A stretch of DNA of 62,739 nucleotides, counting the filler, from Globobulimina sp. (Eukaryota): NCBI GenBank assembly GCA_003354225.1. It is 11 parts of 11 records of this genome, joined end to end, with 100 filler letters (N's around TTAATTAATTAA, not from the genome) between each part and the next. Parts side by side here need not be neighbours in the genome. Positions count along the whole stretch, not along the records: positions 57,140 to 62,739 come from PIVH01000495.1; 10 more parts are not named here. One strand, given 5' to 3'. A program made the translations under genes and the position numbers. The notes under the pieces were generated by a model that worked only from the letters and a program-made list of their open reading frames with translations, made no database searches and had not been told where the DNA came from. Shown in pieces: positions 5,730-62,739 of the stretch; the stretch's first letter is position 1, and every line of letters begins with the position of its first letter.

Positions 5730-7424
5730 AAACTATTTGTCAATGGAAGCTATGTAGATAGTGTAGATGGAGCAAGCATGGAATCATTAGACCCACGCGA
5801 TGGCTCCGTAATTTGTAATGTGAGTGCAGCACAAACAGCTGATGTCGATATCGCAGTAAAAGCGGCTAAAGACGCCTTTGACTCTGGAATATGGTCAGCC
5901 AGATCCGGTTTTTATCGCAGTAAAATATTAAATAAGTGGGCAGATTTAATTGAAGAAAACACAGAATATTTAGCCAGATTAGAGACTTGGGACAATGGTA
6001 AACCATTAACATTCAGTAAATTAGATTTATATTTATGTGTACAATATATTCGATATTTTGCGGGCTGGGCGGATAAAATCCAGGGCAAAACCGTGCAGAA
6101 TGACGATGTATTGGGCAAATATTTTAGTTATACCTTACATGAACCAAAAGGAGTGATTGCGTCCATCACACCTTGGAATTTCCCATTATTAATGTTTGTA
6201 TGGCAGGCTGCGCCGGCATTGGCCTGTGGTAATTCCATAGTGGCCAAAGTGGCGGAAACTACGCCATTAACGGCATTGTTTAATGCAAAATTAATGTCTG
6301 AAGCTGGTATGTTATCTTTATAGTTTATACAATGTACATGTACATAATTTTAATTGTGTCACTGCGTGGTAACATAATTTTAATTGTGTCACTGCGTGGT
6401 AACATAATTTTAATTGTGTCCTCATAATTTTTGCCAAAAATCATTATATTTTGCATGAATCATTTTGTTTTTTACGGATTTTGGTTTGAAAGCCGATTTT
6501 TGTTGATTTGCGTTTTGTAAATTAACGTATTAATAAAAAACAATGAATATAATAGGAGTGCCGGATGGTATGGTAAATATAATCCCCGGATTAGGTCCCA
6601 TCGCAGGTCGTGCCTTAGCCGCTCATCCGGATGTAAACAAAGTGTCGTTTACCGGCAGTGGTCCAACCGGCAGAGAAATAATGCGTTCCGCCGCTGAGAA
6701 TTTAACCTCTGTTTGTTTAGAATTAGGCGGTAAATCTCCCGCAATTATATGTGATGATGCTGATATTGATAATGCAGTGCAACAAATGCAAGTTGGCTTG
6801 GTTTTAAATCAAGGACAATGCTGTGTGGCTGCATCGAGAATATATTGTCAGGAAAAAATCTATGATGAATTTGTGGAGAAAACTGTTGCCGAAACCGAGA
6901 AGAGAAAAATAGGCGACCCCTTCCTCGAAGTGGACCAAGGGCCACAACAAAATAAACGACAATTCGAGAAAGTGTTGTCGTATTTAGATGAAGGTAAAAA
7001 ATCTGGTGCAAAATTGTTGCATGGAGGTAATCGGATTGGTGATGAAGGATATTATGTGGAATCGACCATATTTGGCGATGTTACGGATGAAATGAGTATA
7101 GCGAGAGATGAGATATTTGGGCCGGTAATGCAAGTTATGAAGTTTTCAGAGATCGATGAGGTTGTCCAACGAGCCAATAATACGACGTATGGCTTAGCCG
7201 CCGGTGTGTTTAGTGAGAGCATTAATACTTGCAATCGGCTGTCGCGTTCATTAAAAGCTGGTACAGTGTGGGTTAATTGTTATGATGTATTTGATGCATC
7301 GACGCCATTTGGTGGTTATAAGCAATCGGGTTTTGGTCGGATTAAAGGTGAGTATGCATTGGAGAATTTTACGAATGTTAAAGCAGTCACTCAATTGTTA
7401 CCAAATGATGGTGGATGGTATTAA
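5730..7424 (+). CDS. Aldehyde dehydrogenase (ALDH1/2-like), 5'-truncated; intron 6307-6555
   Basis: Motifs ITPWNFPLLM, FTGS, LELGGKSP, NQGQCCVAASR, EIFGPV and PFGGYKQSGFGR. A phase-1 intron joins the two ORFs. Confidence 0.96.
6342..6420 (+). repeat. 30-bp tandem repeat (about 2.6 copies) in the ALDH intron
   Basis: Unit ACATAATTTTAATTGTGTCACTGCGTGGTA at 6342 and 6372, partial copy at 6402. Confidence 0.95.
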
Positions 7425-11453: not shown

Positions 11454-14400
11454 GTTGATGGTGGGCAATTGGTCATAATTAATAAACTCCTCCTTCACAA
11501 ATTCGTGCTCGATGCCAAATATAAGCGATGGACACTGGCTCTCGCGATATTGCTCAATCAATGCATGGATTGTGTCTGTAAACGAGACCCAGCCAATCAT
11601 GCCGCAGTTGGGCGCCAACGGTATCACTGCATACGTACGGATCTCCAAATCCCTTTTGTTTGTCTCATTGTTGGATTTTAGTAATCTGTTAATCAAACCA
11701 AACAATTGCATGACGCGCTCATCCTGACGCAGATCCTCCTTCCCCTTCAGCAGAAACGTATAGTTATTGCCATCCGTCCCTAATATGGTCAGCTTACGTG
11801 GCCGCTGCGCAGTGCCTACAAACACACTCATACTGGAGTTGAATTTGAAGATATGCACATTGTTCACGTGCGCATTATTCCCTTTGTACGTGCCTGGCAT
11901 CACAATCTCTAAGTTATTGGCATTGAACAAGTGTGGCGATACGTATTGTAAATCTAAATCGGTCAATTTGTCAAATTGCTGATCTATTTTATTGTAAACC
12001 CTCCGATAATACTCCCATGCTCTTAGCATGTCTTGTTCGTTGCGGTTCTTTTCCGGCGTTTTTTTGTATTGTTCCACCAACTTCCACGCCGCCAATAAAT
12101 CCAATTTGAACGCATCCTCAAAGGCTTGTTCACGCAGTGTCTTTGCACCGTATTTGTCACCGACATTCCACAACAACTCATACAATGGTTTCAAGCGCAA
12201 TATCATGGCATTGACATTGCGCTGTTTGCCCCAAAATAGGCGGGATGCCTCAATCAAGGCTTCGTACCACATCTCATGCCATAATATGGCAACCCGCAGT
12301 AATTCCTTACTAATCATCTCGCCCTCCACTACTAAGTTATGATAATTCAATCTTATTTTATCCAACAAGGACTTTGCCGATTTCTTGCGTATAATATTTG
12401 GCGATTTCGAGGCCACCGTCAATGGGAAAATCAAGGATTGCGGATGGGAGCGGCCCACTTTTACCAACAAGCCATGAATCAATGAGCGCACTTTTAATTT
12501 GCCAATGTGCAGTCTGGCAATGATTTGTGGGATCACACTCAGCCATATATCAATGCTGATGTTCTCAAAGCCGCGTTGCAATGCATTGGTGACTCGGCTC
12601 AAATCGCCATAACGAAACCACAAATACAGCAAACGCAACACGTCTTGCAATTTGGTATCGGACTTCGTGTTTTTATTATAGCCAAAGATAATGCTCTTAA
12701 ACAAAGCATCCACCGCCGCCGGGATTAGACTCAGTAACTTGGCGCTTTTGTCCACTTTCACCATCAATTTCTTATTTCGATCCCTCCGCTTCCGATTCCG
12801 CTGCTTGTCCTCATAATGCTGGATTGCTTGGTAGTTCATCAATGCCCAGGCATGCCACGAATAAAACGACTTTGGATCGTGCATTGTCGCCTTCTTATAA
12901 CACAGCAAAACCTCATCGATCGCAGTATCCGTCAGACACTCATTCTTCTCACACTGCAATCCGCCTAATCGCAGATAGCAACTTGCCGTCAAATGATGGT
13001 AATAATAGTATTTCTCCTCAGTGAAATCCGGCCGGCCTTCATAATACGCCATGAAACTCTCCATGAACTGCACCAAACCACTCAACTGTGCCAGGGCTTG
13101 GTTCTTCAGACCCGCAGACCATAAATGCTTCGCGTACGCAAAAGCTACGTTCGGTTGGGCGTCCACGTATTTGTCCTCCGCCATCGCCTGTTCGTCGTCC
13201 ACCTGTTCCTGCGCATCGCCCATCTTTTCATCCACGTCTATGGATTTCATGTAGCGCGAAAACAGAGACACGTCGCGAGCCTGCACCCGGCGTACACCCA
13301 GCGGGAAGGTCAACGTATCGTTCATACAGTTGTGCAGCTTGGAGGCACTGCCCGTTTTCTTCAACGCGGGCGCCCATCTCACAAAATTGTTGTTGCTGTT
13401 CTTGTTATGCGAGTAATACATCTGGTGATAAAACAAGATGTTCTCATTGGGATAGCCCATCAGATTGGCAATGATCTTCAAGCTCATCGATAACCGGTTG
13501 CTTTTGCGGCACAATGATGTGAATTGCAGCCATGTATCCACATCGTCCTGCGGCCGGATCACCAGCTGGCGAATGGACAGTATGCTCTGCCACACCTCGA
13601 CGGAGTGAGACACAAAACTCAGCCGCTGTTTCCACATTGACTCCAATTCCAGGCACTTAGTTTTGTTATTATGCACTTTGGCATCTTTGTACAACAAAAT
13701 CTCCTCCAATTCGACCAATTGCTGTGCGCGGATACAGAGAGGATACATATTTTCATAATCATCCACGATGATACTCGTGAACTTTTCATCTAAAAACTCC
13801 CGGCATTTCTCAATCCAATACAGAGCCTGTTCGCTGTCAGTATCATGTACGGATAATATCGACCGTAGAAAGGCACCGTCAAAGTTATTGTTTGCATTGA
13901 TACGTTTGACAAAATATTTCATTTTGTCCCATTTGGATAAATTCCAACACGCCATGGCGCCCAACGGTGCTACGTCGCGTTCGAACTGCAATAAAATGGT
14001 CTCAGTGTCCTTTTTGGCCTCAGAGGACTTCATGCGACGCGCGCCTTTTTTGCGTTGTTTTTGGAGCTTTGCTATGGTGGCATTGAAGCCACTGCGTTGG
14101 CGCGGACTGTGTCGAGTGGCGATGTTATTTTTCTCGTGACGGAGACTTAAGGAATCTCGATATTGACGCTTTTTGTTTTTAATGTGACCGTTGCCATTGG
14201 ACATGGTCTGGTTGTCTTCGTCTGTGATATCGGAGATATTGGCGTCATTCATCATGTTGTGTGTTGTGGTGCGGTTGTTTAAGCGCTCTAATTCTAACTT
14301 GATGTCATTCACCGAGTCGTTGGCGAGGTTATATAATCTATCCCATTCACCGAGTGCTTTTAGACAACGCATGCGGCCCAAGGAAGCAGTTATATTTGCG

Positions 14401-19744: not shown

Positions 19745-20870
19745 ATTATAGTTAAACGATGTACAGTGTATTGGCAAGGTACAACAGGGTGGTTTATTGG
19801 GAATAGCCTCCCAAATATGCGGTAATTAATAAAAAGGTCCAAAACGCAATCATTCAAATGCGCAATCTGATAACAACAACAGCACTTCCAATGGATGTTG
19901 CATCATTTAAATTAAAGAAGATTAAAAGTAAAAAGTTTGTGGATTTTGGATCTAAAAAGATTACAAGGATATAAAAATAATTGGTTTGTCATGGGTTTAT
20001 TTAAAAAAACAGATGTGTAGAAACGATTTTAATTGAATTAAAACAAAAAACATTAGAAACGATTTTAATTAGATGTGTAGATATAGGTAAACAAAAAACA
20101 GACGATAATTTATTGCCTAAATTTTGATAAATATCTTTTAATAATACTGGATCGCGAATCGCGATGGCAATTTAATAAATATCCCAATTTGAATTCTTAC
20201 GTTGGGCGCAATACTTACAATTCATGTTGAAATAATAACGTTTCTTTAATACATTGCTTTGTTTTTTATCAAATACCACATATTTAGCACAATATCGCCC
20301 TAAACTCAGCCATGAGAATCAATATATCGCCAGAGATCATACGCACACAAAGTCAGCGATCATTTTGATTTGTATGAAATATAAATAATGAATAGGCTAA
20401 CTATGACTAGGACTACGATGTTATGCATATGTATGTGCTGCTGTTGATGTGTATGTTGTGCTTTAAACAGAACAACATAATATATATAAATACATACAAT
20501 ATACGTCAAATTAATTTGTGTACAAAAAAGTGGAAGACGACAAAAAGTTGCTCCAAATATGTTATTCTTAGGATTGCACTGAGCAACAAAATAAGAATTT
20601 CATCGATGTCCCGGCCTTTCATCACGAGATATGATTTGATTAGTTAGCAAAATATGTAAATGTCAGATTCATTATTTACACAACGTCGGATCATCGGATT
20701 TACCAATCACCACAGAGAATTTGTTACACTAATTTTTATTTTAGTATGTTAAAGTATTCAGTGCTTAACAGATTCAATCACAGGGGTTCTTAGCTGCATG
20801 CAGCTGTTTATTACCATATCTCCTTTCTTATTAATATAAGCATATACCTTTTAATTTTTTTTTCTTTTAA

Positions 20871-21608
20871 GGTAGTACCGGAACTAAGCAATATAAGGCT
20901 AGATTAAAGAGAATTCAATGGAATTCAAAAATTCTTTCAACAGACAATAGCTATGATCCTCAGGTATGTTTGTACATGAAATAAATTATGTTTCTGTTGT
21001 ACATGCTATTCAGAAACAAAGGCAAACACTACACGTTTTTGGGATGATTGGTCTATAGATGCATCAAATTAGCTCGCAATATTAACTTTGAATAAAATTA
21101 CTTTGAGATGTGAACACATCCAATAAATACGAAACTTTCCAACAGAACAGATTTTTCATATATTGCTTTAAACGTAAGAGCATCAGGTTTTTAGCGTCAG
21201 GTTTTTATTGTTTCTGAGAAACGAAGGCAAACCTATACTATTTTTACCTTTATCAGTCACCAGAAACGGTTTGCTTACACCTTACCCCAATAAAAATCTG
21301 ACGCTGAAGACAAGATGCTCTTTATTCAATTGTTTCTTCAAAAACAATCATTTTTTGTTGTATGCAATATATGAAAAATCTGTTCTGTTGGAAAGTTTCG
21401 TATTTATTGGATGTATTCACATCTCAAAGGAATTTTATTCAAAGTTAATATTGCGAGCTAATTTGATGCATCTATAGACCAATCATAGAAACATAATTTA
21501 TTTCATGTACAAACATACCTGAGGATCATAGCTATTATGTGTTGAAAGAATTTTGCATTCCATTGAATTCTCTTTAATCTAGCCTAATTGCTTAGTTCCT
21601 GTACTGCC
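20871..21608. mobile_element. 738-bp palindromic non-autonomous DNA transposon with TTAA TSD and GG...CC termini (Kolobok-like MITE)
   Basis: TTAA|GGTAGTACCGGAACTAAGCAAT ... ATTGCTTAGTTCCTGTACTGCC|TTAA. Arms of about 320-340 bp are near-perfect inverted copies. TTAA at 20867-20870 and 21609-21612. Confidence 0.85.
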
Positions 21609-22084
21609 TTAAAGAGGCAATAAAGTTTTAATTACACACAATATAATATAGGCAATATATAGTGTGGCAACATAAACATGACAAGATAATTGCGAAAAAA
21701 ATAAGGAATATATTGTATTGCTGATTTTATATTGCCTATTTTGCTGTTTTTTGAAAAATGAAAATAAATTTGAAATTAATATTGGAAATTATAAAAAAAC
21801 CAAAAAAAAAGCGTGTCATTGCAACCCCTTTCATAACAAAATAAAATAGCAAATGAAAATTTAAAAAAAAATTAAAATAAAAAAAAAAAACCATCAAATC
21901 CTAAAATTCCTATCCAAAAAAAACAAAAAAAGGCCTGTCATTACGATTAAAACAACACCACACATAGCTTATTTAAAAACGAAAATAAAATAAAAAAAAA
22001 AGCCCTATTTATCCTAAAACAATCATTGATCCTCTTGATTCTCATCTTCCTTCATCCTCATCTTGCTTGCATCAGGCGCATCAG

Positions 22085-32530: not shown

Positions 32531-34220
32531 ATGAATAGAAGTCAATCCTCATCGTCCAACACCCCCAAAAATAGAAAGAATAAATCGTCCAAGAGTCGTA
32601 AACGTAAGAACCAGAAATTCTGTGTTGGTGACAAATTGTTAGTGTCCTATATCGATCAAGAATTGCAGGGCGTGTTACATTTCCATGGTCCCGTCAACGA
32701 TGGCAAGAAAGGCTTAGTCCCTCTGTATGGCATAGAACTGGGCCAAGGCGAAGGCGAATCGGACGGCACCTACAACCAATCTGAACGCGTCTATTTCAGC
32801 AGCTCCTCCACCAAATCCGCAGTCTTCTTAAAGCAACGCTACATATTACAAGTTTTAACCCCTATAAACGGCAAACGACTCTGCGTCAACGATCGCGTAC
32901 TCGTCAAAGGTCGCGGCAACGGCGTGATTAAATTCATCGGGCCCACCTACTTCGGGCCGCATTTGTGGTATGGCATCCATTTAGATTCGAAATTGGGCCG
33001 TTCGGACGGCATGGTCCAATCCTACCGATACTTTGCCTGTCCCGTAAAGCACGGCGTCTTTGTCCGAGAGGAAAAGTTGACTCCTTTAGGTATGCCCTAC
33101 ACAGCACATCACTGAGCTGCTTTGCGCAAAATCGCAAATCTATGTGCTTTGTGCCGCCATTCTAGATAAACACGACCGACCTATCAATTTATTAAGCAAA
33201 TATATACGGAAAACGCGGCAAGAAATGGCGACGGACCTCTTTGAGGCCTGCGCCAAGGGCGACATTAAGGTCGTGCGACAGATCTTGACTGTGGATAAGA
33301 CGGTGGCGGCCCACGCCCGCGACAACAACACCGACGCCACCGCCCTGATGACGGCCTGCTATCATGGCTATTACACGGTGGCTCAGGAATTATTGCAAAC
33401 GCGCAAGATCTCCATCAATGAGCAAAACTATCACGGCATGACTGCGTTGCACATGGCTGCGCAAGCCGGCTATCACAAAATCGTCGAGTTGTTGATCAAA
33501 TACGGCATTGAGATTGACGCCACCACAGAGGACGGGACCACTGCCTTGTTCAATGCGGTGGAAAAGGGACACCTCAAAGTCGTGCAGACATTGTTGGACA
33601 ACAACGCCGAAGCAAACTTATGTATGTTCTATTTCTATGCAACTCAAACTGTTTTGCGTTTGGCCTCGCGTTCTACGCAAAATCGCACCCTCTCAACCCA
33701 CCCAATATAGCGTCGCGCGACAACGAGTCGCCGCTAATCCAAGCCTGCCATCGCGGACACGACGAGATTGTGTCGTTATTGTTGAAAGCGTCCAACATCA
33801 AAATCAACCAAAAGCGCAAAACGGACGGCGCCACTTCGTTGTTCGTGGCGTGCCGAGAAGGCGCCACCTTGTGTGTCACGCATTTATTGTCCAACAACTT
33901 GTTGTTCATCAACGAGAGCAAAACGAATGGGCGCTCCCCGCTGTTCATCGCTTCCTTCTTCGGACACAACAGCATCGTGGAAATGTTGATCGCGCACAGC
34001 AACAACATGAAGAACATCCGGATGAACCACGGCATTTTGGACGTGAACCAGTCGGACAGCAAAGTCTTCACTCCGCTGTTCGTGGCGGCGCAGGACGGAC
34101 ACACGCGGATCGTGACGTTGTTGTTGCAGAATGCGGCCGACGTGAACCAGGCGGAGCAGCGCGGCCATACTCCGCTGTGGATCACTGCGCTGCGCGGCCA
34201 CGTGGCGGTGGTTCGCGTGT
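32531..34220 (+). CDS. CAP-Gly (x2) plus ankyrin-repeat protein, 3'-truncated; introns about 33090-33164 and 33622-33710
   Basis: GVIKFIGPTYFGPHLWYGIHLDSKLGRSDGMVQSYRYFAC (CAP-Gly) followed by TALH/TPLF ankyrin repeats over three joinable ORFs. Confidence 0.9.
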
Positions 34221-34619: not shown

Positions 34620-36454
34620 TTAAAATAGACATTGATTATTCATATAAAAAGGATATTTATTCAATTCACGATATTTTAATGGTTTTTTAAGCCATTCAAC
34701 AAATTTTAAATATTCAACACGATCTCGTCCATAAAATTGATTTGCATTAAAGTCGAATTTAAAATTAGTATAATATTTGGGAGTAATTTCCCTAAATTTC
34801 AGCGAGAATAAATCACAATAATTGTTAAATTTTACCATATCATATCTCGATAAGGCATCTGGTAATGTATTAAATGCAGAAGAAACCCATTCTAATCTGC
34901 AAAATATTCGATATTCAATTAATAAAATACATAATTCATATACGAACATCATAAGTGTATATTTTGGTGACCATTTACGACACATTGCGTAGTAACAAGC
35001 AATGTTATCAATATATAATAATAATACTTTGCCTGTTAACGAATATTTATATGATTCAATCAATGATAAAACACAATGGGCTTCTTTTAAATTAATGTGT
35101 TTTGACATCATTTCATTTTTAAATTTATATTTCGCGCAAATATCATTCACAACAAAGCCTGCTCCAATTTTACAAGCATCAGTCGCTGCATATACATTAA
35201 TTGAAGGGGTATTAATTATAAATTGCATAGGCACCGACCTAATATATTCGGCATATTTTAACCAAAATTTAAAGTCATTCACAATCGATAAAGGTAACAC
35301 AATATACTCTGTTTTTTTTATGTTACCATTTCTAATGTTTTTATAAATATAATATATAGAATTGTATACTAAGGATTTTGTACATTTATTGAGCTGCGAC
35401 CAATGCATTATTTTACCACATAAAGATTCTAAGGCTTCACCTGAGACAACGCGATAATTAATAACTAAATGAATAAATTTACGTAATCGATTAAAGGCTT
35501 TATCAGGGATAGAAATTATATTTTTATCTAAATCCCATAACAACCCATAAAGCACTGCATTTGTACAATTATGTATTGATTTTTTATGAGAAATATCAAC
35601 ATTAAGTTCATTCATTAAATTATCGAATTCATTTTCAAGTATATCAACATCTTGTTTTGTGACACCGGCTAACACAAAATCGTCAATATGAACAAGTGTA
35701 TTGCCCATTAAATGTGGATATTTGCCTTTTAATTTGCAATTATTAAGGATCCAAATTAAGAGTGTTGCAAACCACTGGGAATTAGACGGTGCCGTCCTGA
35801 CACCATATGGCTGCTTTCTATCACGGAAACGAAGCCCGAATAATGAATATCCGATAAAGTCCGCATCCTTTTGAGGTAATGGGACTTGTCTGAAAAAATC
35901 GGATAAATCTCGCAATGCAAAATAATTCTTATTTATTAATAATTTAATATATTGGATCATATTTGGAAGTTCTCTCATTTTACAGCAATCCTTCCTGATC
36001 CATTGATTTATACTCGTTTTATTTTTATCGTGGTATGAACCATTACGTATTACTCTCACTTTTGTATAAAAACCGTTTCCGTCTTTCTTTGGAACACCAA
36101 ATATCATACAATAATACTTAGCGTCTTTATTAATTGGCTCAATTTGGCCATTTTTACATTCATCTGATAATTTATCAATAAATGCAATAACTTCATTTAC
36201 CGAATTACAAATATTTTTAATTTTTGTTGATAAATTTATGGGTTTTGAAGGTTTGCCATTTTTATCAATTTGGCCATCTGTTTTTAGAAACAATGGAAAT
36301 CCATTTTCAATATATTTGATTTCTAATTTGCTGTTTTCTTTTGATTTTAAATATCTTTTAAACGCTTTAATATTTAATTTATTTTTAAATTTTGATCCTT
36401 CTGAGTGTAATATTTGTAATTTTTTTACTTTTTTTGCGATTTCTGGGGATATTG
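34620..36454 (-). CDS. Reverse transcriptase + RNase H (DIRS-type), complete 3' end, no native ATG start
   Basis: RT motifs FGVPKKDG, SINQWI, RDLSDFFRQ, QPYGVRTAP, VHIDDFVL. RNase H motifs ATDAC, HINLKEA, YIDN, NTLPDALSR. Frame is open up to a CAG at 36457-36455. Confidence 0.92.
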
Positions 36455-36676
36455 CTGATTATGAAACTAATTAAGAAATGTTCTACAAATTTAAACCAAC
36501 ATCACAACGACAACAGGTATTATTTGTATACATATCACAAATGTAAACAATTAATACATAAACATATAACTCAAGTGTTATAAACTTAGATCAATAGCTG
36601 ACTAAGAATACGATTTAAATTCTAGTTTTATCAATAAATTAATTAAATAAAATGATGTATTTTTAATTTTAGTTAT

Positions 36677-37632
36677 TTAAAAACCTCCACATTGACAAAG
36701 AGGATGATCAGCATTAATATGAACAATACATTTATGTGCTTTTGGACATGGAATTGGGCCGTTTTGTTTATAACATTCACCAAAGGCATTATACGGCGCA
36801 CATTGACGATCTCTAATATCATAATGGCGACCAGTCCCAGTTAAAATATGTTTAATTTTATAATATGCATCATTTATCAAATTAGGTTTTTTGTTTTGAA
36901 AGTTATTATTTTGTCTGTAATTATTTGTATTCTGATTATTATAATTTGATTTATTATTCCTTTGATTATTGTAATTTCTTTTGTTATTATATGAATTTCT
37001 ATTATTTTTATCGCGATTATACTGATTTGCTTTTAATTTATCAAAATATTGTTTGACTTTATTTTTATTATTGTCATTATTTTTAATTTGAATAAATGAG
37101 TTATCTTTATTTGCTTCATCGGACTTATAATTTGAAAATTTATTTTGTAAAAATGAATCCAGCGACACCTTACTTTTTCTATTTTGATTGTTATTCATAT
37201 AATTATTTGTAAATATGCTATAAAAAGATTGATCCTTCAAAAGCGCTGCACGCATTCCATTATTTGACCAAATATAAAATAATTGAGGAACAAATAAATT
37301 ATCTTTGATTGATGGCAAAATAACATCTAATAATTTTGATAAATCACATCTTTTGTAATCTAACCAAACACGAATTAAACGATGCAAATCCACTTCATCA
37401 TCATTCTCTGGTTTTATTTTATTTAATTTTGTTTCCATTTCCATCATAAAATTAAGGATAAATTTAATAGATTTATGAAAATTCCATTTTGATTTAAATA
37501 TAGATTTTATTTCCTTTGAATAATTATTATGTGATAATTTATCCTCAATTATCAAATATTTATTGATTTGATACATTAATGAAATAAAAGACAAATCTTC
37601 TTCAACTGTGCCAGAAATAAATAAAATCAAAT
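36677..37632 (-). CDS. Gag-like ORF of element A (Asn-rich linker, C-terminal Cys/His finger)
   Basis: CAPYNAFGEC...CPKAHKCIVHINADHPLCQC, directly upstream of RT. Confidence 0.75.
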
Positions 37633-38027
37633 CTAATTTGATTGAAATTAATATTTTATCATTTGTGTTAGTTTTTAAATTGGCAGAATTTGCAGGCGAA
37701 TAAATTAAAGTTAATAAATTGTGATTAAGTGGGCCTTATTTCAATACATTAATTGGATACATTATATTATTAAATTTAACATATAAAAAATAAAAAAAAT
37801 TTTAAAATTTTATTTGATTGTTTGACAACATTTTGATTGTTTGACATTATGTGATGTTGGTATTTACAAATTAAACAAACACAAAACTATTAATTTACGA
37901 AATATTGTACATAAACTTGGAGGGTCACACCAAGAATACCAATAAAAGTAAGACAATAAAAGTCAAGTAAATGTCAAAAAGTTTCGAAAAAAAATAATAT
38001 AGAAAAAGGAAATTAATATAAATATAC

Positions 38028-48393: not shown

Positions 48394-48876
48394 CTGTTGT
48401 GTTTTAGTTTAATTATTGTGCTCACAAAATTAAATTGAAAACTAAGTACCTCTCTAAACTTTACTTTATAACTTACCACGCTTTGGTTTGCTTTACGAGG
48501 TGGGGCTGGTCGGTTTATCCCAATATGTCACTGTACTGCAGCTGAGTCTCTGTACACGCATAGAATGATACCGCCTTTCTCATTCTTGGATTAATCTCCT
48601 TAAGTACGGTGTTTATATTGTAAGTATCACAATTTATTTTTTATTTTGTGCATACACCATTAACTTTCTTTTCATTCTGTCTATTTTGTATATATAAAAA
48701 GCGTTTCTACTAAAACGTCAACCTATTTTGCTAACTACTTTTACCAAAGTACCAATATTTTATCTCCCCGTGAATTATGATTAAAATGATATACTTTTAC
48801 CAAAGTACTCACGTGTAACTTTACAAAGTTTACCAACGTTTCCAAACACTAACAAAAAACTATTATACTTTGACAG

Positions 48877-50012
48877 TCCCGGCGAGAATAAAAAATAGAC
48901 GACAAGCAAGAGACGATGTAATTCAATTTTTTACTGGATTTGCAACAAGAGAAGATTTCGGGATACCGAAATTATTACATTCTACGTTAAAATATTTATC
49001 TGATTCCTACAATATCTCCGATATCAGTTCCACGTCGAAAGAAATTTATTCATCATTCAAATCCAAACATGCCATTTTCTTTATTCTTGATGCCTGGACA
49101 CATACATTGGATTTCGTATTGTCGGCATTAAATAACATAAAAGAACAGAATCCATTGATCAATATCTTAGTGGATTGGGTCCAAATATGTAAAGCGAGCA
49201 TCTTTTTATTCAAAGAAAAACTCGCTCCCTATGGCAAGAAACCATATTTTAACGTTGTCAATTTCTGGGCGGCTGTCATTGAAATATTTGATTACTATTT
49301 GGACCATGCGACTCAGTTCAGTTTATTAATGGATAATAATTATTATACAGACCAATTTAACACCATCTCGCCACGAAACAATGTCATCCAATTTTTATTG
49401 AGCACATTCCCTGAATTTAAAATGGATGAATACGAAAAGGATAAAAAAGTCAATATTTATATTGATAATCAAAAATCCTACCATTCCAACAGTAATCCAA
49501 CAAATTTCAACAATAATAATTATAAAAATGATACCAAACCATGGAGAAATAAACAAAATCCGAATTATAATCAGAATCAAAACCATAACAATGACAATCC
49601 CAATCCGCGAAATTATAATAATCGCAATCCAAATGCCCGAAATGCAAACAATCGAACTCCAAATAATCGGAACAATAACAATAGAAATCCAAACAATCGC
49701 AATCAAAATAACAACAGATCCCAGAATAGTTATTATGCGTCAAAAGAGAAAACAAGAGCGTTCCGACGCTGTTGTCATGAATGTATGGGCGAATATGGTG
49801 TGCCATGCCCCAATGACTGTTGCATGTGGCGATTTTTTCTCGGATCTTGTTCAAATCCACGAAACCAATGTGGTACAAACAGCGATCAATTCAAACATAT
49901 TTGCGCATTCCATCCGGATCAAAACCATACGTTCCGAAATTGTGAAACAGCCAAATCAAAATCTGAAATTTATAAACAATATATCAAGAAATTCAGTGAA
50001 TTTTCTTTTTAA
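48877..50012 (+). CDS. Gag-like ORF of element B
   Basis: Asn/Arg/Pro-rich linker followed by CMWRFFLGSC...C...FKHICAFHPDQNHTFRNC. DDVIQFFTG...EDF parallels DLILFISG...EDL of element A. Confidence 0.75.
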
Positions 50013-50223
50013 ATTATAATATATCTATATTTTACCTTTGTAGTTTTGTGTGGGGGGATAATTTAATAATTAGTTTCTTTCGTTCATTTACCTATGAAAT
50101 ATGATCTAATCTCTTGTGATTCTTTCCTTTCTGTGTCAACGTTTCCATTATCGAAGACATTGAAAAGTCACTAAACAAACACTAAAACAGTTTTTTAATG
50201 TTTGAACTCAAAATACTACACAG

Positions 50224-51337
50224 CCTTTGACCCGCAGTTCGCAAAAGAACTAAAATCAAGGCTTGATCAATTTACATCATTACATAATCAGCCCTCAAAA
50301 TATGTCAACCAATTGAATATTCCGGCATTTAATAAATATTTACAAGGAAAGCGAAAATATAAATCTGATATAAAATGGATAACAGTCGGCTTCCCTCTGT
50401 GGTTAAAAACACATTTTAAATCAAAAAATCAGCCATTAACAAAACCAAATAATCTTTGCACAAAAATATCAAATATTGCAAATACACCGCAAGAAGCTAT
50501 TGCAATCTTAGATAAAATGATAAAAGAAGCTGAAAATGGACAAATAGAACCATTTTTCGGCAAACCAGAATATATTGTTATGATATTTTGTGTGCCAAAA
50601 AAAGATGGCCAGGGTCGATACACAAAATTCCGTATAATCAGAAACGGTTCGTTTAAAACAAAAGTAACCTCTGCCATAAATGAGTGGATTCGACCCATAA
50701 AATGTAAAATCCCTTCTTTACCAAATTTAAAACAATATGTAAAAACTCTCATTGATTGTAATTTCTTTGCGATCAGAGATTTATCGGATTTCTTTCGCCA
50801 AATCGGACTTTGTGAGGAAGATTCGAATTATATTTGTTATTCTTTATTTGGGTTAGTATGGAGAGATCGTAAGCAACCTTATGGTATCTCTTCAGCCCCT
50901 GCAAACTGCCAATATTTTGCCCAAATATTAATTTGGATTTTAGATAATAAAATATTTGACAAAAATTGGAGAAATAAAACGTTAGTACATATTGATGATT
51001 TTGTATTGGGAGCAGTAAAAGAAGCAGATTGTGTTGAGATGGAACACCGATTTGATATATTGATGAAGGAATTAAATGTTCAGGTTTCTCTCAAAGAAAC
51101 CAGATTTATAAAAACGTGTCAAAAATCTGTGTTATATGGTATTTTTTTCGATTTACAACACAAAACCATCGGTATTCCTCCAATAAAATATAAAAACTTT
51201 AAACAATTATTATTTTACACAATGCAATATCGCGTAATCACAGGAGCTGCCCTTGAATCCATTTGTGGAACCATTATGCATTGGGCCCAATTAAAACAAC
51301 CAACAAAATCACTTTGTTGGAATTTATTACACTTTAT
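50224..51337 (+). CDS. Reverse transcriptase (DIRS-type), 3'-truncated
   Basis: FCVPKKDG, AINEWI, RDLSDFFRQ, QPYGISSAP, VHIDDFVL, ALESICG. Confidence 0.92.
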
Positions 51338-51437
51338 NNNNNNNNNNNNNNNNNNNNNNNNNNNNNNNNNNNNNNNNNNNNTTAATTAATTAANNNNNNN
51401 NNNNNNNNNNNNNNNNNNNNNNNNNNNNNNNNNNNNN

Positions 51438-54789: not shown

Positions 54790-57039
54790 TTAAACATTAT
54801 ATCTCGATTTAAGTATTTCTTGCGTATTCGGACTCAATCTGTTCATAATATTTTGCCAGTTCGGCGCCGCGTTTTTGAATCCTGCCAATACTTTTTGGAA
54901 CTGCTCATTCAAGAAAGTCGGCGGCTGCTTCCACTCCGCAATGGATTCAAACAAAATGGTGCAGCCGTTCCGCGACTGCACCACGGCGATGGGATTCTTC
55001 ATCACCACAACCATCAAGGTTTGGAACGCCTCGATCTTATCGTCGTCCTCCTGGAACATGGACAGCGACTTAATCCATTCCACTGCGAACTGGTCCCATT
55101 TCTTGATGATTTTGTTGGGGAACTTCTTGACTAAGCGCGCCATCGTAATGGCCACATTGGTCACGATGTACGGCGGAGACTTTTCGTACTTGAGTATCTC
55201 CACCAAACGCGACAAGATCTCGTCGCAATATCCTTCCATAATGCTCTCGCCATTGTCGCCCATCTGGTCGCCGTACACCATCAAACACTGTCCGATGCAC
55301 CACGACGCATTGGTGCACACCGTCTGCCAGTCCCAGTTGAGGTTCGCAATGATGATCTTCAGGAACTTGCAGATATGCATCTGCATCTCGCGCGCATTCA
55401 AAGTGATAATGTCGCCCAACAGCGCCAGGCCGTTGCGCCGAACATTGAAATGCGTCTCGCAGATCGAGCAATAGATCATGGCCAACAGCTTCTGATGGTT
55501 GCCGTTCCAAATCAGGTTCCGGATGCTCGGGTTGCATTTCTCCACCAACACGGCCAACAGATCCAGCCCGCAAACCCAAAACTCTTTGTTGGGTTTCTCG
55601 ATCGCCGCGTCCTGCTCATGCTGCGCCACGTATTCGTTGTATTCGCGGCACGCATTCTTGACATCCACGCAGATATTGAGCACCGTGTCGAAGATGTCGG
55701 GCAGGTAATTCTGCTGATAATGCTGCGTATGGCCGATGTGCGTGGTCCACTGCGTGATGGCCTCGAACAAGGGGAAGATGTTGGTGTCGCCGGTCAGCGA
55801 CACCCAGCGCTTCAGGATGGGCGGAAGCAGCGCGTCTTGGAACTTCGGGTCGCAGAGGATGTTGTTCTGGCTTTGCTGCTGGTTTTGCGTATTCTTGACG
55901 ATCACGTTGGTGCAGCACAGGATGACGTCGATTAAATGCGGGAAGTTGCGTAAATGGTAGTTTTCAAAAGCTTGCAGAAACGTATTGATCAGCGCTTCGA
56001 TGTACTCTTTCTTCGCTAAGATCTTCTCGTTGCACGAGGTCAGAAACGTGGCGATGGCGCCGCAAGACGCGCGTTGGACGCGTTTGGACGACGATTTCAT
56101 GCCAGATAGGAATTGGTACAGGATCTTCTCGTAAAAAATGTCGCCTTCCACGCTCGAATAGTACCAGTTACTGAAACGAGCGAGCGACCAAGACGCGATT
56201 TGTTGCACTAAGATATGCTTTTTATTGTCGCATTGCAGTAATATAAAGGGGATTAATTCTGGCAAGCTCGGGATGATTGACTCGTATTCGCGTTGTGTGA
56301 TTGCGCCTTTTTAGTATTAATATTTGCAGTGTTTCAGCGTCAGACGTTGCAAATTACGGAATTAAAAAAGAAATATATCAAATGAACATACCTAAGACTA
56401 ATAATCCGGCTTCGATGTCTAAAAAATCGCGCGACTCGACCATGTGTTTGATCATTGGCAGGACACAGGACAGCAACTTGGATTTCAGCTCACCGCCACA
56501 AAAGGACAGCTTTTCCAACTGCGTGGCTGCGCATTTCCGTATATTCCATGAGGACTCCTCCTCATCCATTTGGTACGCATTTACGTGTTCACCCGACTTA
56601 GTTTCATAGACATCCGCACCGCCTCTGTCCTTGTAATGTAACGGTGCCATATCCTCCGCCAAATCAGCACAACTTTGGTCATCCGTTGCGAAGTCAATCA
56701 ACGATAATAGCTCCTCCGTGTACTTACAGCGAGAGACTAAGACTGGCAATAATTTGGGAAAGAATTCAGTCAAATACTTGTTGTCTTTGCTGGTGTCGGT
56801 TGCGTATAAGGCCCAGAACTCCGCCGCGGTGCACGAGATGTCACTGTCTTTGGCGTTTTTGGTGGCATCTAAGATGAATTCGAATATGATACCGATGTTG
56901 TTAGTATTTGGACCACTTAATTTAATCCAATATTCATTCATTAATACAATGACGGTGTCCACGATGACTTTGGTCACACCGCCAATGTCATGGTGCCCGC
57001 CGTTCATTTGCAACAAGATTAAGTTTATATATTTATCCA
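54790..57039 (-). CDS. TNPO1: Transportin-1 (importin-beta2/Kap104), 5'-truncated; intron 56391..56307
   Basis: AAEFW, acidic loop then WNIRKCAATQL, KRVQRASCGA, KEFWVCGLDLL, VCTNASWCIG. Confidence 0.9.
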
Positions 57040-57820
57040 NNNNNNNNNNNNNNNNNNNNNNNNNNNNNNNNNNNNNNNNNNNNTTAATTAATTAANNNNN
57101 NNNNNNNNNNNNNNNNNNNNNNNNNNNNNNNNNNNNNNNTGAAAAGTATGTTTGTCAGTGAAAAAACAATGATTTTTCTAATTCAAACTATTACAGTATA
57201 TAAAAATCTTAATTGTATTGGTAAATGGTAACCCCTTAGAAAATCTATTTTTAAAAAAAATTAACCAACGCAAAATCTATATTTTTTTTTACATTTTAAA
57301 AAAGAAAGTTCACAAAAAATCGCATAAAAAAATCCAATTTTTTTAAAAAATCGCCAAAAAATCGCCAATTTGTTTACATTTAATGAAACAAAGATCACAA
57401 AATTCATAAAAAAAAATATAGACTAATCCTGTATTTTTTTGTGGTCATTCAATCCTTGCACTCAAAACTTCAGCGACCTCGCCACGACAAAAATCGTTTG
57501 AAAATGAGTTACATCACTTACATGCAAAATCAGTTCATACTGTTATTTAGTATTCTTCAGAGGAATATTATTCGATATGTGAAGGAATTTGGTCAAAAAG
57601 GGTTAATCCCTTTGAGAAAACCTTTACACGAAAAAACGACATTTTAAGCTTACTTCACTGTGATTGATTTAAACTTGAGATGAGCAACGTTTCTGTACCT
57701 ATTTATTTGTTGTCGGAGCGTTTAATGCAACCCATGAACACACTTGCTTCAGTTCAGCATTCTCAAAATTCAAATAATACATCAGAAACACATGTTTTTA
57801 CGCTATATACAAAGGATACA

Positions 57821-59233
57821 TTACACAGCATTCCACGCTTGAATGCTACAATGAGATGAAGAGTTTATGTGCAGATTTAACTCTAAATCATCAATTAATT
57901 GTGGTCGTTCTGCATTAATTTCAAAGTTAATATCAATAAATTTAATCTTTAATCGATCCCATCTTCCAAATTTTGTTTTCCTTCGTTTAACTTCATTATC
58001 ATCTTTATCATCAATAAAATATTGATTTTTATAAATATCTTTTCTATCCAATATAACAATAATAGTAAATGGGTTTGGTAAATCCACCAATTTATCCGGC
58101 CGAATCATTATATTTTTGCCAATTGTATCATAACCATAATGTATTTTCTCTCTATTATCAAACTGAATTCTTAAGGTAGTCATTATATACATCACTCAAC
58201 AAAATGCATCCAATGATTCAAATCCATATATATTGCTAAATCAAATATTGTTTGCGCATTTATACGGATTTGATCCACAAATAAATTCACTGACAGCTCG
58301 AGTCAAATATATTTACAACTACCTCAAGAAATGTTTTTCACAATCTTCAAACACAAACTTCCAACAATATTCCTCTCCAAATTTGGTTTTCCCCTCAATC
58401 CACAATCTCAGATTCGTTTGCGTGCCAATGGCAGTATGCACATCCCCTAATGTTTCAAATTTGAATCCTTGGCATCTTTCCCTATAAAAATTGCAATGTT
58501 TATTAAATAAATCAGTAAATGAGAAAACTAAATCTTTTATGGGAAATGGTACTGTTTGGTTTTTACGCTTTAGCTCTAATAAATTGTTTTCAATCTCTCT
58601 GATAAATCCATAAACCAATAACACCAAAACATTGTCATCATAAACATTTCGCGTTTTTTTAGCTTTTTGATGTTGATTGTCGTCAACATTTACAATGTGT
58701 GGAGTGGCTATACTTTGCGAAATATTATAGATGGAATTCCATGCTTTTATGGTCGTTTTGATTGACGAAATGAGAGTGATATCCATCATTAAATCTTGTG
58801 TCTCGAACTGTCGTTTTTGTGCAGATATCTCAGAATCGATGGATGGTATTTTAACTTTTAACTGATCCCAACCTGACTTTGTTTGATTTGCATCGGTTCT
58901 GTCAAATGTTACAATGATGTTGAATGACGTCGGCAGGTTTCCAGGCAATGTTTTGTTGATCTCATTGGTGCGGTTTTTTTTGTCAAAAAAGTTAATACGA
59001 ATAAAAGTATATTTACAGTTTTTAAATTGTATTTTCCATTGATTGCTTTTTTTATATAATGTTGAGGCGTTGAGATACAGTTTGCACATTGATAATGAAT
59101 TAATTTTGGCGATATTTTGCTTTTTGTTTTTGCTAAATGTAAACCCAGTGGACATATATGGATTGAATGTGCATGGAATGTAGTTGGTGTTGTTATTATC
59201 AACTATTTGAGACGAAGATTTAGAATTACCCAT
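57821..59233 (-). CDS. Hypothetical N-myristoylation-motif protein with two internal domain repeats; intron 58322..58170
   Basis: MGNSKSSS start. LPTSFNIIVTFDR..WDQLKVK..IKAWNSI repeats as LPNPFTIIVILDR..WDRLKIK..IQAWNAV. Splicing gives HFLRIQFD, matching TFIRINFF in repeat 1. Confidence 0.8.
58175..58323. mobile_element. 149-bp palindromic TTAA-target MITE forming an intron (introner candidate)
   Basis: TTAA|GGTAGT...ACTACC|TCAA with an internal inverted repeat. Intron length 153 equals element plus one 4-bp TSD. Confidence 0.75.
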
Positions 59234-59364
59234 TAAAAACGGAAAGTTGTGCGTTTTTCAGAAAAGTATGTCGATCCCTAGCCGTGAAGTTGAAAAACAA
59301 TGAAACAATGAAGAAACAGAACACAAAAAAACAGATATCACACATATTAATTTAACGTCTACAT

Positions 59365-62334
59365 TTATTTATGTTTTGTTCTATAATTATGCGGTGCATC
59401 AATCAACAAAGCAGTCCAAATGGAATTCGCCGCTTCTTCCACAATTCTTAATAATTCGCTTGCTGCCAACTCTTCATTTATTTCTAAACTAAAGCGCGAA
59501 TAAACAAATCTCACATTTTCCTCAATCACTTGCATAGAGCCCTGGCCAATCAATGATAACAAATTCAGTATCAACGGTGCCATTTTCCTCAACCTCGAAT
59601 ATGCGGAAATAATATATTTCTGAAATTTTTTATATTTTATCGACTTATAACCACCTAACACATCAATCATCTGCTTAATAATCCTTATTTTTGGAGAGAT
59701 TGTCGATTTCATTGGAGGTTCCTCGCCATAAATATATCCAAAATCAATATGAAACAAATAACCGCCCGGTGTCAATAAGATATTATCCAAATGGCGATCT
59801 CCGACACCTAATAAGTATGTAATCACACAATACCCAGCCAATGACTTTGTAAATATATCAATGGATTGCGCCAACTGTTTGGGATTATGTTCATTCTGAT
59901 CAATATAATATTTACTGATACTATTTTGATATCCTTCTAAAATGCCACCAATGGTTGGCGCGTTGGGCACAAACTCCATCATTCCACTGTCAATCCCCGT
60001 GGCTAACACTGGATACGGCGTTAAATATAAATTTAAATTAACTTCTTGCAATAAGTTGTCCATCAAATGTATAGTTTGTATGATTAATTGGTCCCTCCGT
60101 AAATCGTCGCCATTCTTCCATATTATGATATAATATTTATCCAAATCTAAGTTGGTTAGTTGCGTTCGTTGCAATTGTCGCCGCAATATCTCATTTACTT
60201 CACTTTCGTTTTCATCCTCGCCGTCATTGGAAATATTCTCACCGTCATTCTTATTTTCGTTAGTTTTTGCATCCGAATCGTCCACACACGATTTAAATTT
60301 TTTATCTTTCTCGAATTTAAAGGCAATCCGTAAGGGCGCCATGGCACTGCGAAATACAGAACATTCTCCACCTTCGATGCCCGTCACGCGAATATTCGGT
60401 CTCAATGGCATTAAAACTCCCTTTTCAAATTCTTGTAAGTAATGAAACTTGCCCTTGTCCGATGATATCGTATATCGTAATTTGTTTTTCTTATCGTCAA
60501 CTTTTCCATTAATATTACCAATATATTCACTTTAATAAATAATAAGATATGGAATACTTGAATGAAACATATAAATCACAAAAACAAATTGATAGAAGTA
60601 CAGCTTTTAATTTCTGTCAATTTGTCTTGTAATTTACAAAAGTATTCCACATTTTACTTGTTTTTCAGTACCTTAATTTTATTAATTGTCCAATTAACCA
60701 TTTTTGTCTCAACAACTCCTCAAAATAATCAGCTCTCTTTTGTTGCGTTTCAGCAATAATTTTCTCCAAAAAGAATAGGTATCTTTGATTGAAGGCATTG
60801 TCACTGTTCTCGTCCTGTTCCGTTGCAACCACCACACTCCAATATAAAAAATTCAATAACGAATAACTTTGTGCCGATAAACATCGATCCAATAAGAAGC
60901 GTTCTAATTCACTCAGTGATTTCTTGTCAATGCCAATAAAACTTTCAAAACGTATAGCTTGTACTAATTGCATTATATATAATTCTAAATCCGCATCAGA
61001 TGCGGTACGACGCAATACGTCGATGCCAAACTTTCGAAATTGTCCGCACGTAAAATGCCCAGATAACAAATGCAACGCTGAAGCTATATCAATGGCGGCC
61101 CATTTATCCATTAAATTTAATGCTATTTCGATTTCTGAATCATTGGATTGATTTATAATTCGCAAAAATTTGGTTAATGCATTTTTGTTATCCATCAAAT
61201 ATTTTTTGTACTTCCATACCAATAACTTTTACCAACAATATTATAACACTGATGTTCAAGCCACAAATGGGTAATTTTACCAAAAAAGACATGCTTTGAG
61301 CATCGAACAAAAGTGTTACAATCCCATACCTTATCACTTTCAGTGATGTTACTCATATCAAACAATTTAATAATTTCTTGCAGCCGTTTCTGTTCATCAA
61401 CCGCGGGTCGCACATCATAGTCATCCAAGAGATCCAAATGCTGTGACAATTTATTGTTTTTTTCCAACACCGGATTGGTCAGTTTAGTTTCGGGATCACT
61501 CAGTAACAATAATAGCGATTCTATTTGAGGCACACTCTTACCATTTATTTCATTATTTTTATATTCCAATTTCTGTTTCGAGTCAGTACTGGTCGGAGCA
61601 CGTATAATTTGAACCTTTTTTTTATTTGCTTTTTCCTGAAACACTATTTTATATCCAATATTAGGCAACGTTACGGATAAATAAATACCGTGCGCTGTGT
61701 CACTTATTTGAACAGAGTTAGTTTTATTTTCTTGATTGATTCTGTTTAACCGCCTATTTGTTAATGCATCTAAATATGGGACTTTTGGTATTTGTTTCAT
61801 AGCTTTTGCAGTAATTTTGCTTTGTATTTGATCTTTGACAGTCAAGTAACGGTTTAATTTTGTAAATAAGGTTTTAGAATCAATAGAACCATCACCATGA
61901 TAGCCTTCGCGTATACGTAGTTTGTAATGGCCAAAACGTAAGATACGCTGTTCAAATAATGGTAATGTCACACCACCAATGATATGCTTGATAGAGCCGG
62001 TTAACGTGGATGATACGGCGTAGATAGTAAATACAATTTGGGAATCACGCGAAATATCACAAATACGTACCGGGAATGTTACAATTTCATTCCATTTACA
62101 TGCGGATGAATTAAACTGTTTGTATGAGCATGTTACGGGTAGTCCCAAGATCATACCTTTTTGAAATAATGCTGCTTCAATAAAACATTCATATTCGTTA
62201 TTATTACTGCTTGTTGTGGGCGAGTAATGTGTAAAATTGGTTAATTCTGAGGCTGCGGGTACACCACAAATCCCGCTGATAATAACTTTCACGTTGAATT
62301 GAACATCGGATGAGAAATAAAAGCAGACATTCAT
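59365..62334 (-). CDS. VPS34: Class III phosphatidylinositol 3-kinase; introns 61329..61226 and 60671..60530
   Basis: C2 domain (WNEIVTFPVRICDISRDSQ), helical domain (ALTKFL, LELYIMQLVQAIRFE) and kinase domain (KNGDDLRRDQL, AGYCVITYLLGVGDRHLDN, FHIDFGY). Confidence 0.96.
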
Positions 62335-62397
62335 TTCTCCGGACACGATTTTACTGACTTTAAGTTTTAAATATTATTCACGGTACAAGCAGCGACC

Positions 62398-62739
62398 ATG
62401 GAATTAATAAACTCAACACAGATTCAACAGGTACAATGTGCTTCTTTTGTAGTAGCGTCATGCAAAAAAATCATTGTAACAATGCCATGTATAGTGTTTC
62501 AATACAGCCAACAAAATCTCATTAAGTGAAGCAATATTCAATGAATATGACGAATTAATTAAATTACGTCGCCATTTTCATCGCTATCCAGAATTAGGTT
62601 ATAAAGAATACGAAACATCTAAATTTATTATAGCGTATTTGCGTAATCTATCATCAGCATTAACTATAAAAACAAATATTGCAAAAACAGGTGTTACCGC
62701 GTTATTGATTGGTGAAAGAGGTAATGGTCCATGCATTGC
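62398..62739 (+). CDS. M20D-type amidohydrolase, 3'-truncated; probable intron 62431-62494
   Basis: LIKLRRHFHRYPELGYKEYETS...AKTGVTALL. Absent from the ORF track. Confidence 0.88.

Follow-up and report, generated by a model that had tools for sequence, protein, structure and literature searches.

The 62,739-nt stretch of DNA from Globobulimina sp. (GenBank assembly GCA_003354225.1) analysed here, hereafter the window, is eukaryotic DNA with 35% G+C, long open frames and few introns. On its minus strand lies a gene interrupted by a 153-nt spliceosomal GT..AG intron (58170..58322) that is cut out exactly and whose ends resemble those of a short DNA transposon. On balance, we lean towards the explanation that this intron arose from one insertion of a TTAA-inserting, Kolobok-like non-autonomous element. 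The original prediction, which was made from the DNA sequence, had described it as a miniature inverted-repeat transposable element (MITE) that is spliced out exactly, and as a candidate Kolobok-derived introner.

Intron boundaries and the host gene

The evidence for splicing comes from contigs of four public runs (X1, X5, X6 and X8) placed on positions 57200-62700. We took X1 as genomic DNA: its contigs read through the introns of the neighbouring gene and also from exon 2 of the host gene into its intron (X1 record 1, 57713-58245). The other three bear no RNA label on record ("RNA?" was guessed for X6 and X8, "?" for X5); they were treated as transcript-derived because their contigs skip GT..AG introns that the X1 contigs read through, three in X5 and X6 and two in X8. 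Apart from the host-gene intron, these are 60530-60671, skipped in X5, X6 and X8, and 61226-61329, skipped in X5 and X6 (no joint there in X8), both GT..AG on the minus strand. The spliced contigs stem from relatives and are silent on the presence of the introns in the relatives' DNA.

On the minus strand, the upstream exon ends with ...TTC TTG AG at 58323 and the next exon opens with A ATT at 58169, so that the phase 2 intron splits an AG/A arginine codon (here and below, a slash within a sequence marks the splice junction). The joint between 58169 and 58323 (a skip of 153 nt, CT..AC on the plus strand) was found in four contigs of three runs: one in X5, one in X6 and two in X8, with none in X1. 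In X8 record 23, all 204 letters are accounted for by 163 aligned letters and a far side of 41 letters, which leaves nothing between the two sides of the joint. Splicing yields Phe-Leu-Arg-Ile-Gln (TTC TTG AG joined to A ATT CAG) and keeps the frame. The intron is thus cut out exactly at the sites that had been predicted, which are set by the proposed element and its target-site duplication (TSD), and the mapping of transcripts across 58323/58169 that had been suggested as a check turned out positive. In the spliced runs, we saw no cover over the intron beyond the exon part of its bin, although regions without cover prove nothing.

Coding exon 1 (58323..59233, minus strand) starts with an ATG at 59233, and its product begins with MGNSKSS; coding exon 2 (57821..58169, minus strand) includes the stop codon at 57821-57823. 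Joined, they encode a 419-codon product. Among 309 candidates scored, drawn from a collection of about 5.8 billion proteins, a single homologue was found. This protein, P0001 (423 amino acids), is listed in EukProt under the foraminifer Bolivina argentea. Exon 1 shows 53% identity with its residues 1-305 and exon 2 shows 78% identity with residues 304-420. P0001 is colinear and unbroken at the junction (...EKNFLRIQFDN... versus ...EKHFLR/IQFDN... in the window), which agrees with the contig joints in confirming the predicted exact restoration of Leu-Arg-Ile. The use of other splice sites or a split into two separate genes, either of which would have spoken against the prediction, was not seen: the contigs join 58169 to 58323 and P0001 spans the junction.

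A Pfam search assigned no family to the host protein. It is internally duplicated, with residues ~18-165 resembling residues ~245-418 (29% identity in comparison with the corresponding parts of P0001). The N-terminal repeat has no intron at the spot that matches the host intron, which is weak evidence for an insertion. The protein starts with Met-Gly, the usual start of an N-myristoylation signal. X1 also contains a variant of the host gene at roughly half depth (58391-58572 and elsewhere; e.g. 58445 C>G, 58461 T>C and 58486 A>C). It bears letters that are also found in X5, X6 and X8, and may represent either another haplotype or a closely related paralogue.

A known small RNA hosted in the intron was considered as well and found no support. 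Across the window, no known RNA family reached its gathering score, and the five matches within 58100-58400 were all at chance level (E 4-10; 12-16 bits, where the cut-offs are 50-90).

Intron ends, target site and the 738-bp element

The element that we propose was inserted is 149 nt long (58175..58323, minus strand) and has GG...CC termini. The exon ends on the first G of this element, whose bases 2-3 provide the donor GT. It opens with the terminal repeat GGTAGT (58318..58323) and closes with the reverse complement, ACTACC (58175..58180), the two agreeing at 6/6 positions over what is a short inverted repeat. Immediately outside lie the two copies of a putative TSD, which agree at 3/4 positions: TTGA in the exon (58324..58327, within TTC TTG AG) and TTAA in the intron (58171..58174, seen in the sequence and in contigs). 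The acceptor AG consists of the last A of the intronic copy and a host G (58170). Further inside, the hairpin has a core inverted repeat (58218..58273), visible in the sequence and in the predicted folds, with 16-nt arms at 58218-58233 and 58258-58273 that are 88% complementary and 24 nt apart. The intron thus carries at its ends, in TTGA/TTAA and GGTAGT/ACTACC, the transposon hallmarks looked for in an introner, and ends, flanks and inner repeat were all found where the original prediction had placed them.

The 3' end of the intron matches an intergenic element elsewhere in the window, as had also been noticed before. The string TTAAGGTAGT occurs exactly twice in the 62,739 nt, once at 20867, at the end of a 738-bp element, and once at 58171, at the intron's 3' end. 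The 5' end of the intron has the same hexamer inverted, beside TTGA; the 738-bp element, too, opens with GGTAGT (at 20871). A third match in the window to TTAAGG[CT]AGT, at 21612, is the other end of the same element. GTAGT is not a usual donor here, the other introns inspected starting with GTACTG, GTATGG, GTATGT and GTACAA.

The 738-bp element itself (20871..21608) is palindromic and non-autonomous, reads GGTAGT.../...ACTGCC and is flanked by TTAA at 20867-20870 and at 21609-21612. Its ends are GGTAGTACC... and ...GTACTGCC, and it is self-complementary over its whole length (748 columns, 70%). No other inverted-repeat element of the window is clearly flanked by TTAA, and this one is present in a single copy. 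Judged from its sequence, it is a candidate Kolobok-type element. The TTAA duplication of Kolobok is seen in the 738-bp element as TTAA/TTAA and in the intron element as TTGA/TTAA, with TTAA in a transcript variant, and both elements have the GG...CC form of the Kolobok-type 5'-RR...YY-3' termini.

Two other superfamilies were considered and rejected. The duplication made by PIF/Harbinger (Tourist-like) elements is 3 bp long (TWA); the 3-nt flanks of the 738-bp element are TAA and TTA and form no direct repeat, while the 4-nt flanks form the repeat TTAA/TTAA. An origin as a piggyBac-derived MITE would call for termini that are not of the RR..YY type, those of piggyBac being CC..GG, and the termini of both elements are GG..CC.

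How often such ends would come about by chance was estimated from 26,706 pseudo-introns in the window (GT[AG]..AG, 60-300 nt), with no fixed register required inside the outermost ~10 nt. Of these, 65 (0.24%) had a flank repeat of 4 nt with at most one mismatch together with a perfect 6-nt terminal inverted repeat (TIR), and 4 (0.015%) had the same structure with TTAA as one of the flanks. These frequencies are rough, as the pattern was picked post hoc, after the data had been seen. With a few dozen introns at most in the window, a chance origin of the terminal structure is unlikely, even before the match to the local 738-bp element is counted.

The insertion that we propose would have occurred as follows. 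A short non-autonomous cut-and-paste DNA transposon, specific for TTAA and with GG..CC termini, would have landed in a coding exon at the palindromic site TTCTTAAGAA, duplicating the TTAA. This target, which is obtained when the element and one of the TTAA copies are taken out of the sequence, is in frame and forms a perfect palindrome of 10 nt. The first bases of the element, G/GT, would then have become the 5' splice site, and the downstream copy of TTAA together with the host G that follows it the 3' splice site (..TTAAG/). The 153 nt removed by splicing would comprise the 149-nt element without its first G, followed by TTAA and G, and the ...Phe-Leu-Arg-Ile... frame would be restored. Later, a synonymous A>G change (TTA>TTG) would have altered the exonic TTAA copy, and the body of the element would have drifted while its sense RNA continued to pair end to end, with a 13-bp helix joining both splice junctions. 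This pairing of the ends may now aid splicing.

The synonymous TTA>TTG difference in the exonic copy had been part of the original prediction. TTGA indeed stands against TTAA, and an unchanged variant was found, as expected, in X6. Two X6 contigs aligned to 58175 run on into the upstream exon; they represent a spliced variant with the junction TTC TTA AGA ATT, in which TTAA is intact (the genomic intron state of this variant is not readable from spliced contigs). At a position occupied by Glu in the window, it has Lys, as does P0001, a weak hint from sequence comparison that TTA is the older state. The direction of the TTA/TTG difference is a matter of inference.

RNA pairing, other introns and rival origins

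The RNA of the host intron is predicted to form one hairpin over positions 1-147 of 153 (-39.8 kcal/mol, z-score -3.81, 1 of 200 shuffles as good; z -4.15 in a second run). When exon flanks are included, a predicted helix of at least 13 bp crosses both splice junctions.

Other introns of the window fold as well. The 142-nt intron of a Vps34-like gene (60530-60671, minus strand), RNA-verified in X5, X6 and X8, has z-scores of -5.81 for the sense and -6.01 for the antisense strand; according to these predictions, it is a true DNA palindrome that folds equally on both strands. It is bounded by TTAA on both sides (exon ...TTAAG/GTACTG ... TTAAAG/exon), and its outermost 6-13 nt are not mutual inverted repeats. 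The best protein matches of this gene have 68% and 61% identity, followed by matches of at most 42%. The RNA-verified 104-nt intron at 61226-61329 (minus strand; z -2.82 sense, -2.60 antisense) forms one hairpin (positions 8-90), and its ends lack TTAA. The 64-nt intron at 62431-62494 (plus strand, RNA-verified in X6; z -0.05 sense) lies at the window edge in a gene diverging from the Vps34-like gene and forms no hairpin, and a predicted 85-nt intron at 56307-56391 has a sense z-score of +0.17. In this stretch, hairpins thus go with intron length: the three verified introns of at least 104 nt fold, and the 64-nt and 85-nt introns do not. A predicted 249-nt intron of an aldehyde-dehydrogenase-like gene (6307-6555, plus strand), which by eye contains 2-3 tandem copies of a ~30-nt unit, has a strong fold on its sense strand but not on the antisense (-60.0 versus -30.8 kcal/mol).

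The scan that had been suggested for introns of the TT[AG]AG/GT...CCTTAAG/ type was run window-wide as TTRAG/GT...TTAA(A)G/, where 40 or more open codons were required either side of the intron. It gave two matches, 58170-58322 and 60530-60671, both of which are RNA-verified introns. With a background probability of the TTAA-boundary pattern of ~0.0017 per intron, two such cases among 30 introns have P ~0.001, for a pattern that was fitted post hoc.

A number of observations weigh against an origin by insertion. Only a poor fold is predicted for the antisense strand of the host intron (-21.4 kcal/mol, z -1.50, matched by 17 of 200 shuffles). Beyond the termini, the sense stem leans on G.U pairs (10 of 53 pairs), and none of the nine opposed mismatches in symmetric loops is A.C. 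As DNA, the intron is by these fold models a weak palindrome, unlike 60530-60671 or the 738-bp element. The perfect TIR is just 6 nt long, and the donor site itself demands GGTA. A-rich acceptors (AAAG, TAAG) are common in the window, so that the match to TTAAG counts for less. Nor is there an excess of inverted-repeat pairs flanked by TTAA: the window has 12 (three of them nested in the 738-bp element), compared with 6-17 when any of nine control tetramers takes the place of TTAA.

The search for related elements also came out against it. No second 149-nt element was found in the window (best non-self blastn match 18 nt, E 0.03), the 22-mer of the element's 5' end had no exact match in metagenome contigs, and no transposase was found among 26 open reading frames (ORFs) of the window that were scanned. 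In ten pairwise comparisons among the hairpin introns and the 738-bp element, no significant similarity was found; at this sensitivity, we thus rejected the idea that the hairpin introns form one sequence family. The best pair was the host intron and the predicted intron at 6307-6555, the reverse complement of the latter aligning weakly with the core of the former (3 of 200 shuffles as good, uncorrected), and the host intron showed no similarity to the 738-bp element beyond the shared 10-mer. Metagenome contigs likewise gave no match to a degenerate 23-mer built on the ends of the 738-bp element. Summed X1 contig depth, which does not equal copy number, was 12.7 in the intron bin and 6.7 and 16.1 in the adjacent bins; we give no weight to this lack of a pile-up of extra copies.

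Part of this evidence favours an ordinary spliceosomal intron, the ends of which pair by selection on the pre-mRNA to bring the splice sites of an unusually long intron together, the likeness to a transposon being coincidental. The much better fold on the transcribed strand, together with the G.U pairs and the missing A.C mismatches, is as expected for a structure at the RNA level, and all three RNA-verified introns of at least 104 nt form one hairpin; the GGTA demanded by the donor and the lack of sister copies point the same way. The pairing of the host intron may indeed be kept at the RNA level, as the fold predictions suggest. RNA pairing is free in sequence, however, and yet the intron's 3' end is an exact 10-mer of the only TTAA-flanked element in the window; selection for pairing also leaves the 4-nt repeat TTGA/TTAA and the TTAA transcript variant unexplained. 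The strand asymmetry is partly compositional, since the sense strand is rich in G+U (shuffle means of -27.3 versus -16.6 kcal/mol) and the folding program favours G.U. Moreover, selection on the RNA after birth from a transposon would yield the same asymmetry. We therefore consider a purely coincidental likeness somewhat unlikely.

It is also conceivable that an older intron of ~88 nt took up a small palindromic insertion, a 65-nt core around 58218-58273, and that the terminal likeness to a transposon arose by chance. The strongest inverted repeat at the DNA level is indeed this core, with its 16-nt, 88% complementary arms, and removing it (intron positions 45-109) leaves ~88 nt, which falls among the lengths (52-89 nt) of the window's short introns, observed or predicted. 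On inspection by eye, though, the core has no flanking direct repeat, the predicted stem runs unbroken from the core to the very ends, and the terminal TTAA+GGTAGT match would go unexplained. The hairpin as a whole spans positions 1-147 of 153, so that its removal leaves no short intron. In the three hairpin introns, the stems leave only 6, 24 and 21 nt, and because they fill nearly the whole introns, birth as palindromic insertions can be argued for rather than insertion into older introns. An insertion confined to the core thus appears very improbable to us.

A broader scheme would extend the insertion origin to the neighbouring introns. A class of TTAA-inserting, Kolobok-like palindromic elements would have made most introns longer than 100 nt, and the hairpins would then have been kept by selection on the pre-mRNA, holding the splice sites together. 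The host intron would be an old member, worn down to G.U pairing on the sense strand, and 60530-60671 a younger one that is still a DNA palindrome. We regard this scheme as rather doubtful.

For the host intron, a single insertion of a TTAA-specific, Kolobok-like element is the origin that we favour, with the insertion event and its target, the TTA/TTG direction, the Kolobok affiliation and the role of the hairpin all being inferred. The terms MITE and introner have exact splicing and transposon-like ends in their favour; the absence of a second copy from the window and from metagenome contigs speaks against them, and with a single copy known, an introner family is unproven. Derivation from Kolobok is likewise only partly upheld, by the TTAA and GG..CC signature of the 738-bp element, and finds no support in a transposase among the 26 ORFs.

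Some further features of the window may be added. Directly 3' of the host gene lies an A/T-rich, low-complexity intergenic stretch (57200-57751). It draws X1 contigs to a summed depth of 100-257, compared with ~6 in neighbouring bins, and is therefore repeated or low-complexity; it contains no evident TTAA-flanked inverted-repeat element. Two related retroelement copies (34620-37735, minus strand; 48819-51389, plus strand) each contain an ORF with a sub-threshold match to RVT_1 (27.9 and 27.7 bits, cut-off 29.6), and each adjoins an Asn-rich ORF ending in a Cys/His-rich stretch. Composition is strongly gene-specific: some genes (mTOR-like, ankyrin-repeat and HEAT-repeat/transportin-like; within 12000-14400, 33000-34200 and 55200-57000) reach 45-54% G+C, compared with 22-35% elsewhere, and carry long shadow ORFs in other frames.

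Comparison with known systems

The origin of new introns is a long-standing question, and the insertion of a transposon that splices itself out is the best-documented source. The comparisons below draw on portions of three published sources (PMC9587614, PMC11282704 and PMC12130899). Kolobok is set apart from piggyBac by a TTAA duplication combined with RR..YY termini (PMC9587614). The TTAA-specific 4-bp duplication and the 5'-RR..YY-3' termini given there for non-autonomous Kolobok elements are also found in the 738-bp element and the intron element, the assignment to Kolobok here being based on these two structural features.

The closest parallel in mechanism is the introner IE1 of Micromonas pusilla, in which the GT at the 5' end comes with the element, while the AG at the 3' end is recruited from the duplication (PMC11282704). 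Both are short non-autonomous DNA transposons, or would be in the present case, with TIRs, a TSD and exact removal. The Micromonas introners have 3-nt duplications and thousands of similar copies, whereas the duplication here is a 4-nt TTAA and one copy is known (PMC11282704).

In structure, the present element resembles the small palindromic introner families of Symbiodinium, which have 4-bp duplications; among them, S. microadriaticum fam4 has terminal-motif hits to Kolobok_T2 (Dataset S2 of PMC12130899). They too are introns of ~100-150 bp with nearly whole-length inverted repeats and splice sites that are carried or co-opted (PMC12130899). The dinoflagellate families, however, comprise 7-47 copies and are finally classed as "TIR DNA / Unknown / palindromic" (PMC12130899; compared here without their duplication sequences), while the present element is single and belongs to another lineage, the sole homologue of its host gene being foraminiferal. 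In Dataset S2, the word "Kolobok" appears eight times, as terminal-motif hits in the rows examined, and "piggyBac" does not appear; none of the introner families in these rows is finally classed as Kolobok (PMC12130899). One family in the dataset is described with "GG/CC termini, 3bp TSDs", which concerns the PIF/Harbinger criterion (PMC12130899). "piggyBac" and "TTAA" were absent from the 12 of 13 supplementary files of PMC12130899 that were searched, and a literature search returned no paper combining "introner" and "TTAA" and one combining "introner" and "Kolobok". Reticulomyxa filosa, the one foraminifer whose genome was screened in that study, yielded no introners (PMC12130899). The view that no TTAA/Kolobok introner had been described is softened by the Symbiodinium palindromic families, one of which has Kolobok-type motif hits (PMC12130899).

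The pairing of the intron ends recalls a third group. In the nonconventional introns of euglenids and in introns of Fritillaria borealis, base pairing of the TIRs within the RNA draws the two intron ends close, the junctions carry duplication-like repeats and an origin from MITEs is suspected; their junctions are non-canonical, in contrast to the GT..AG found here (PMC11282704). The strand-specific hairpin of the host intron suggests the idea that a transposon's inverted repeats may be recycled as an RNA clamp that aids splicing, and are then kept in the RNA sense only. Set against these systems, the intron would be best regarded as one well-supported case, in a single copy, of an already known route rather than as a new mechanism. 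What it adds is an example that is open to experimental checks and involves a Kolobok-like element specific for TTAA.

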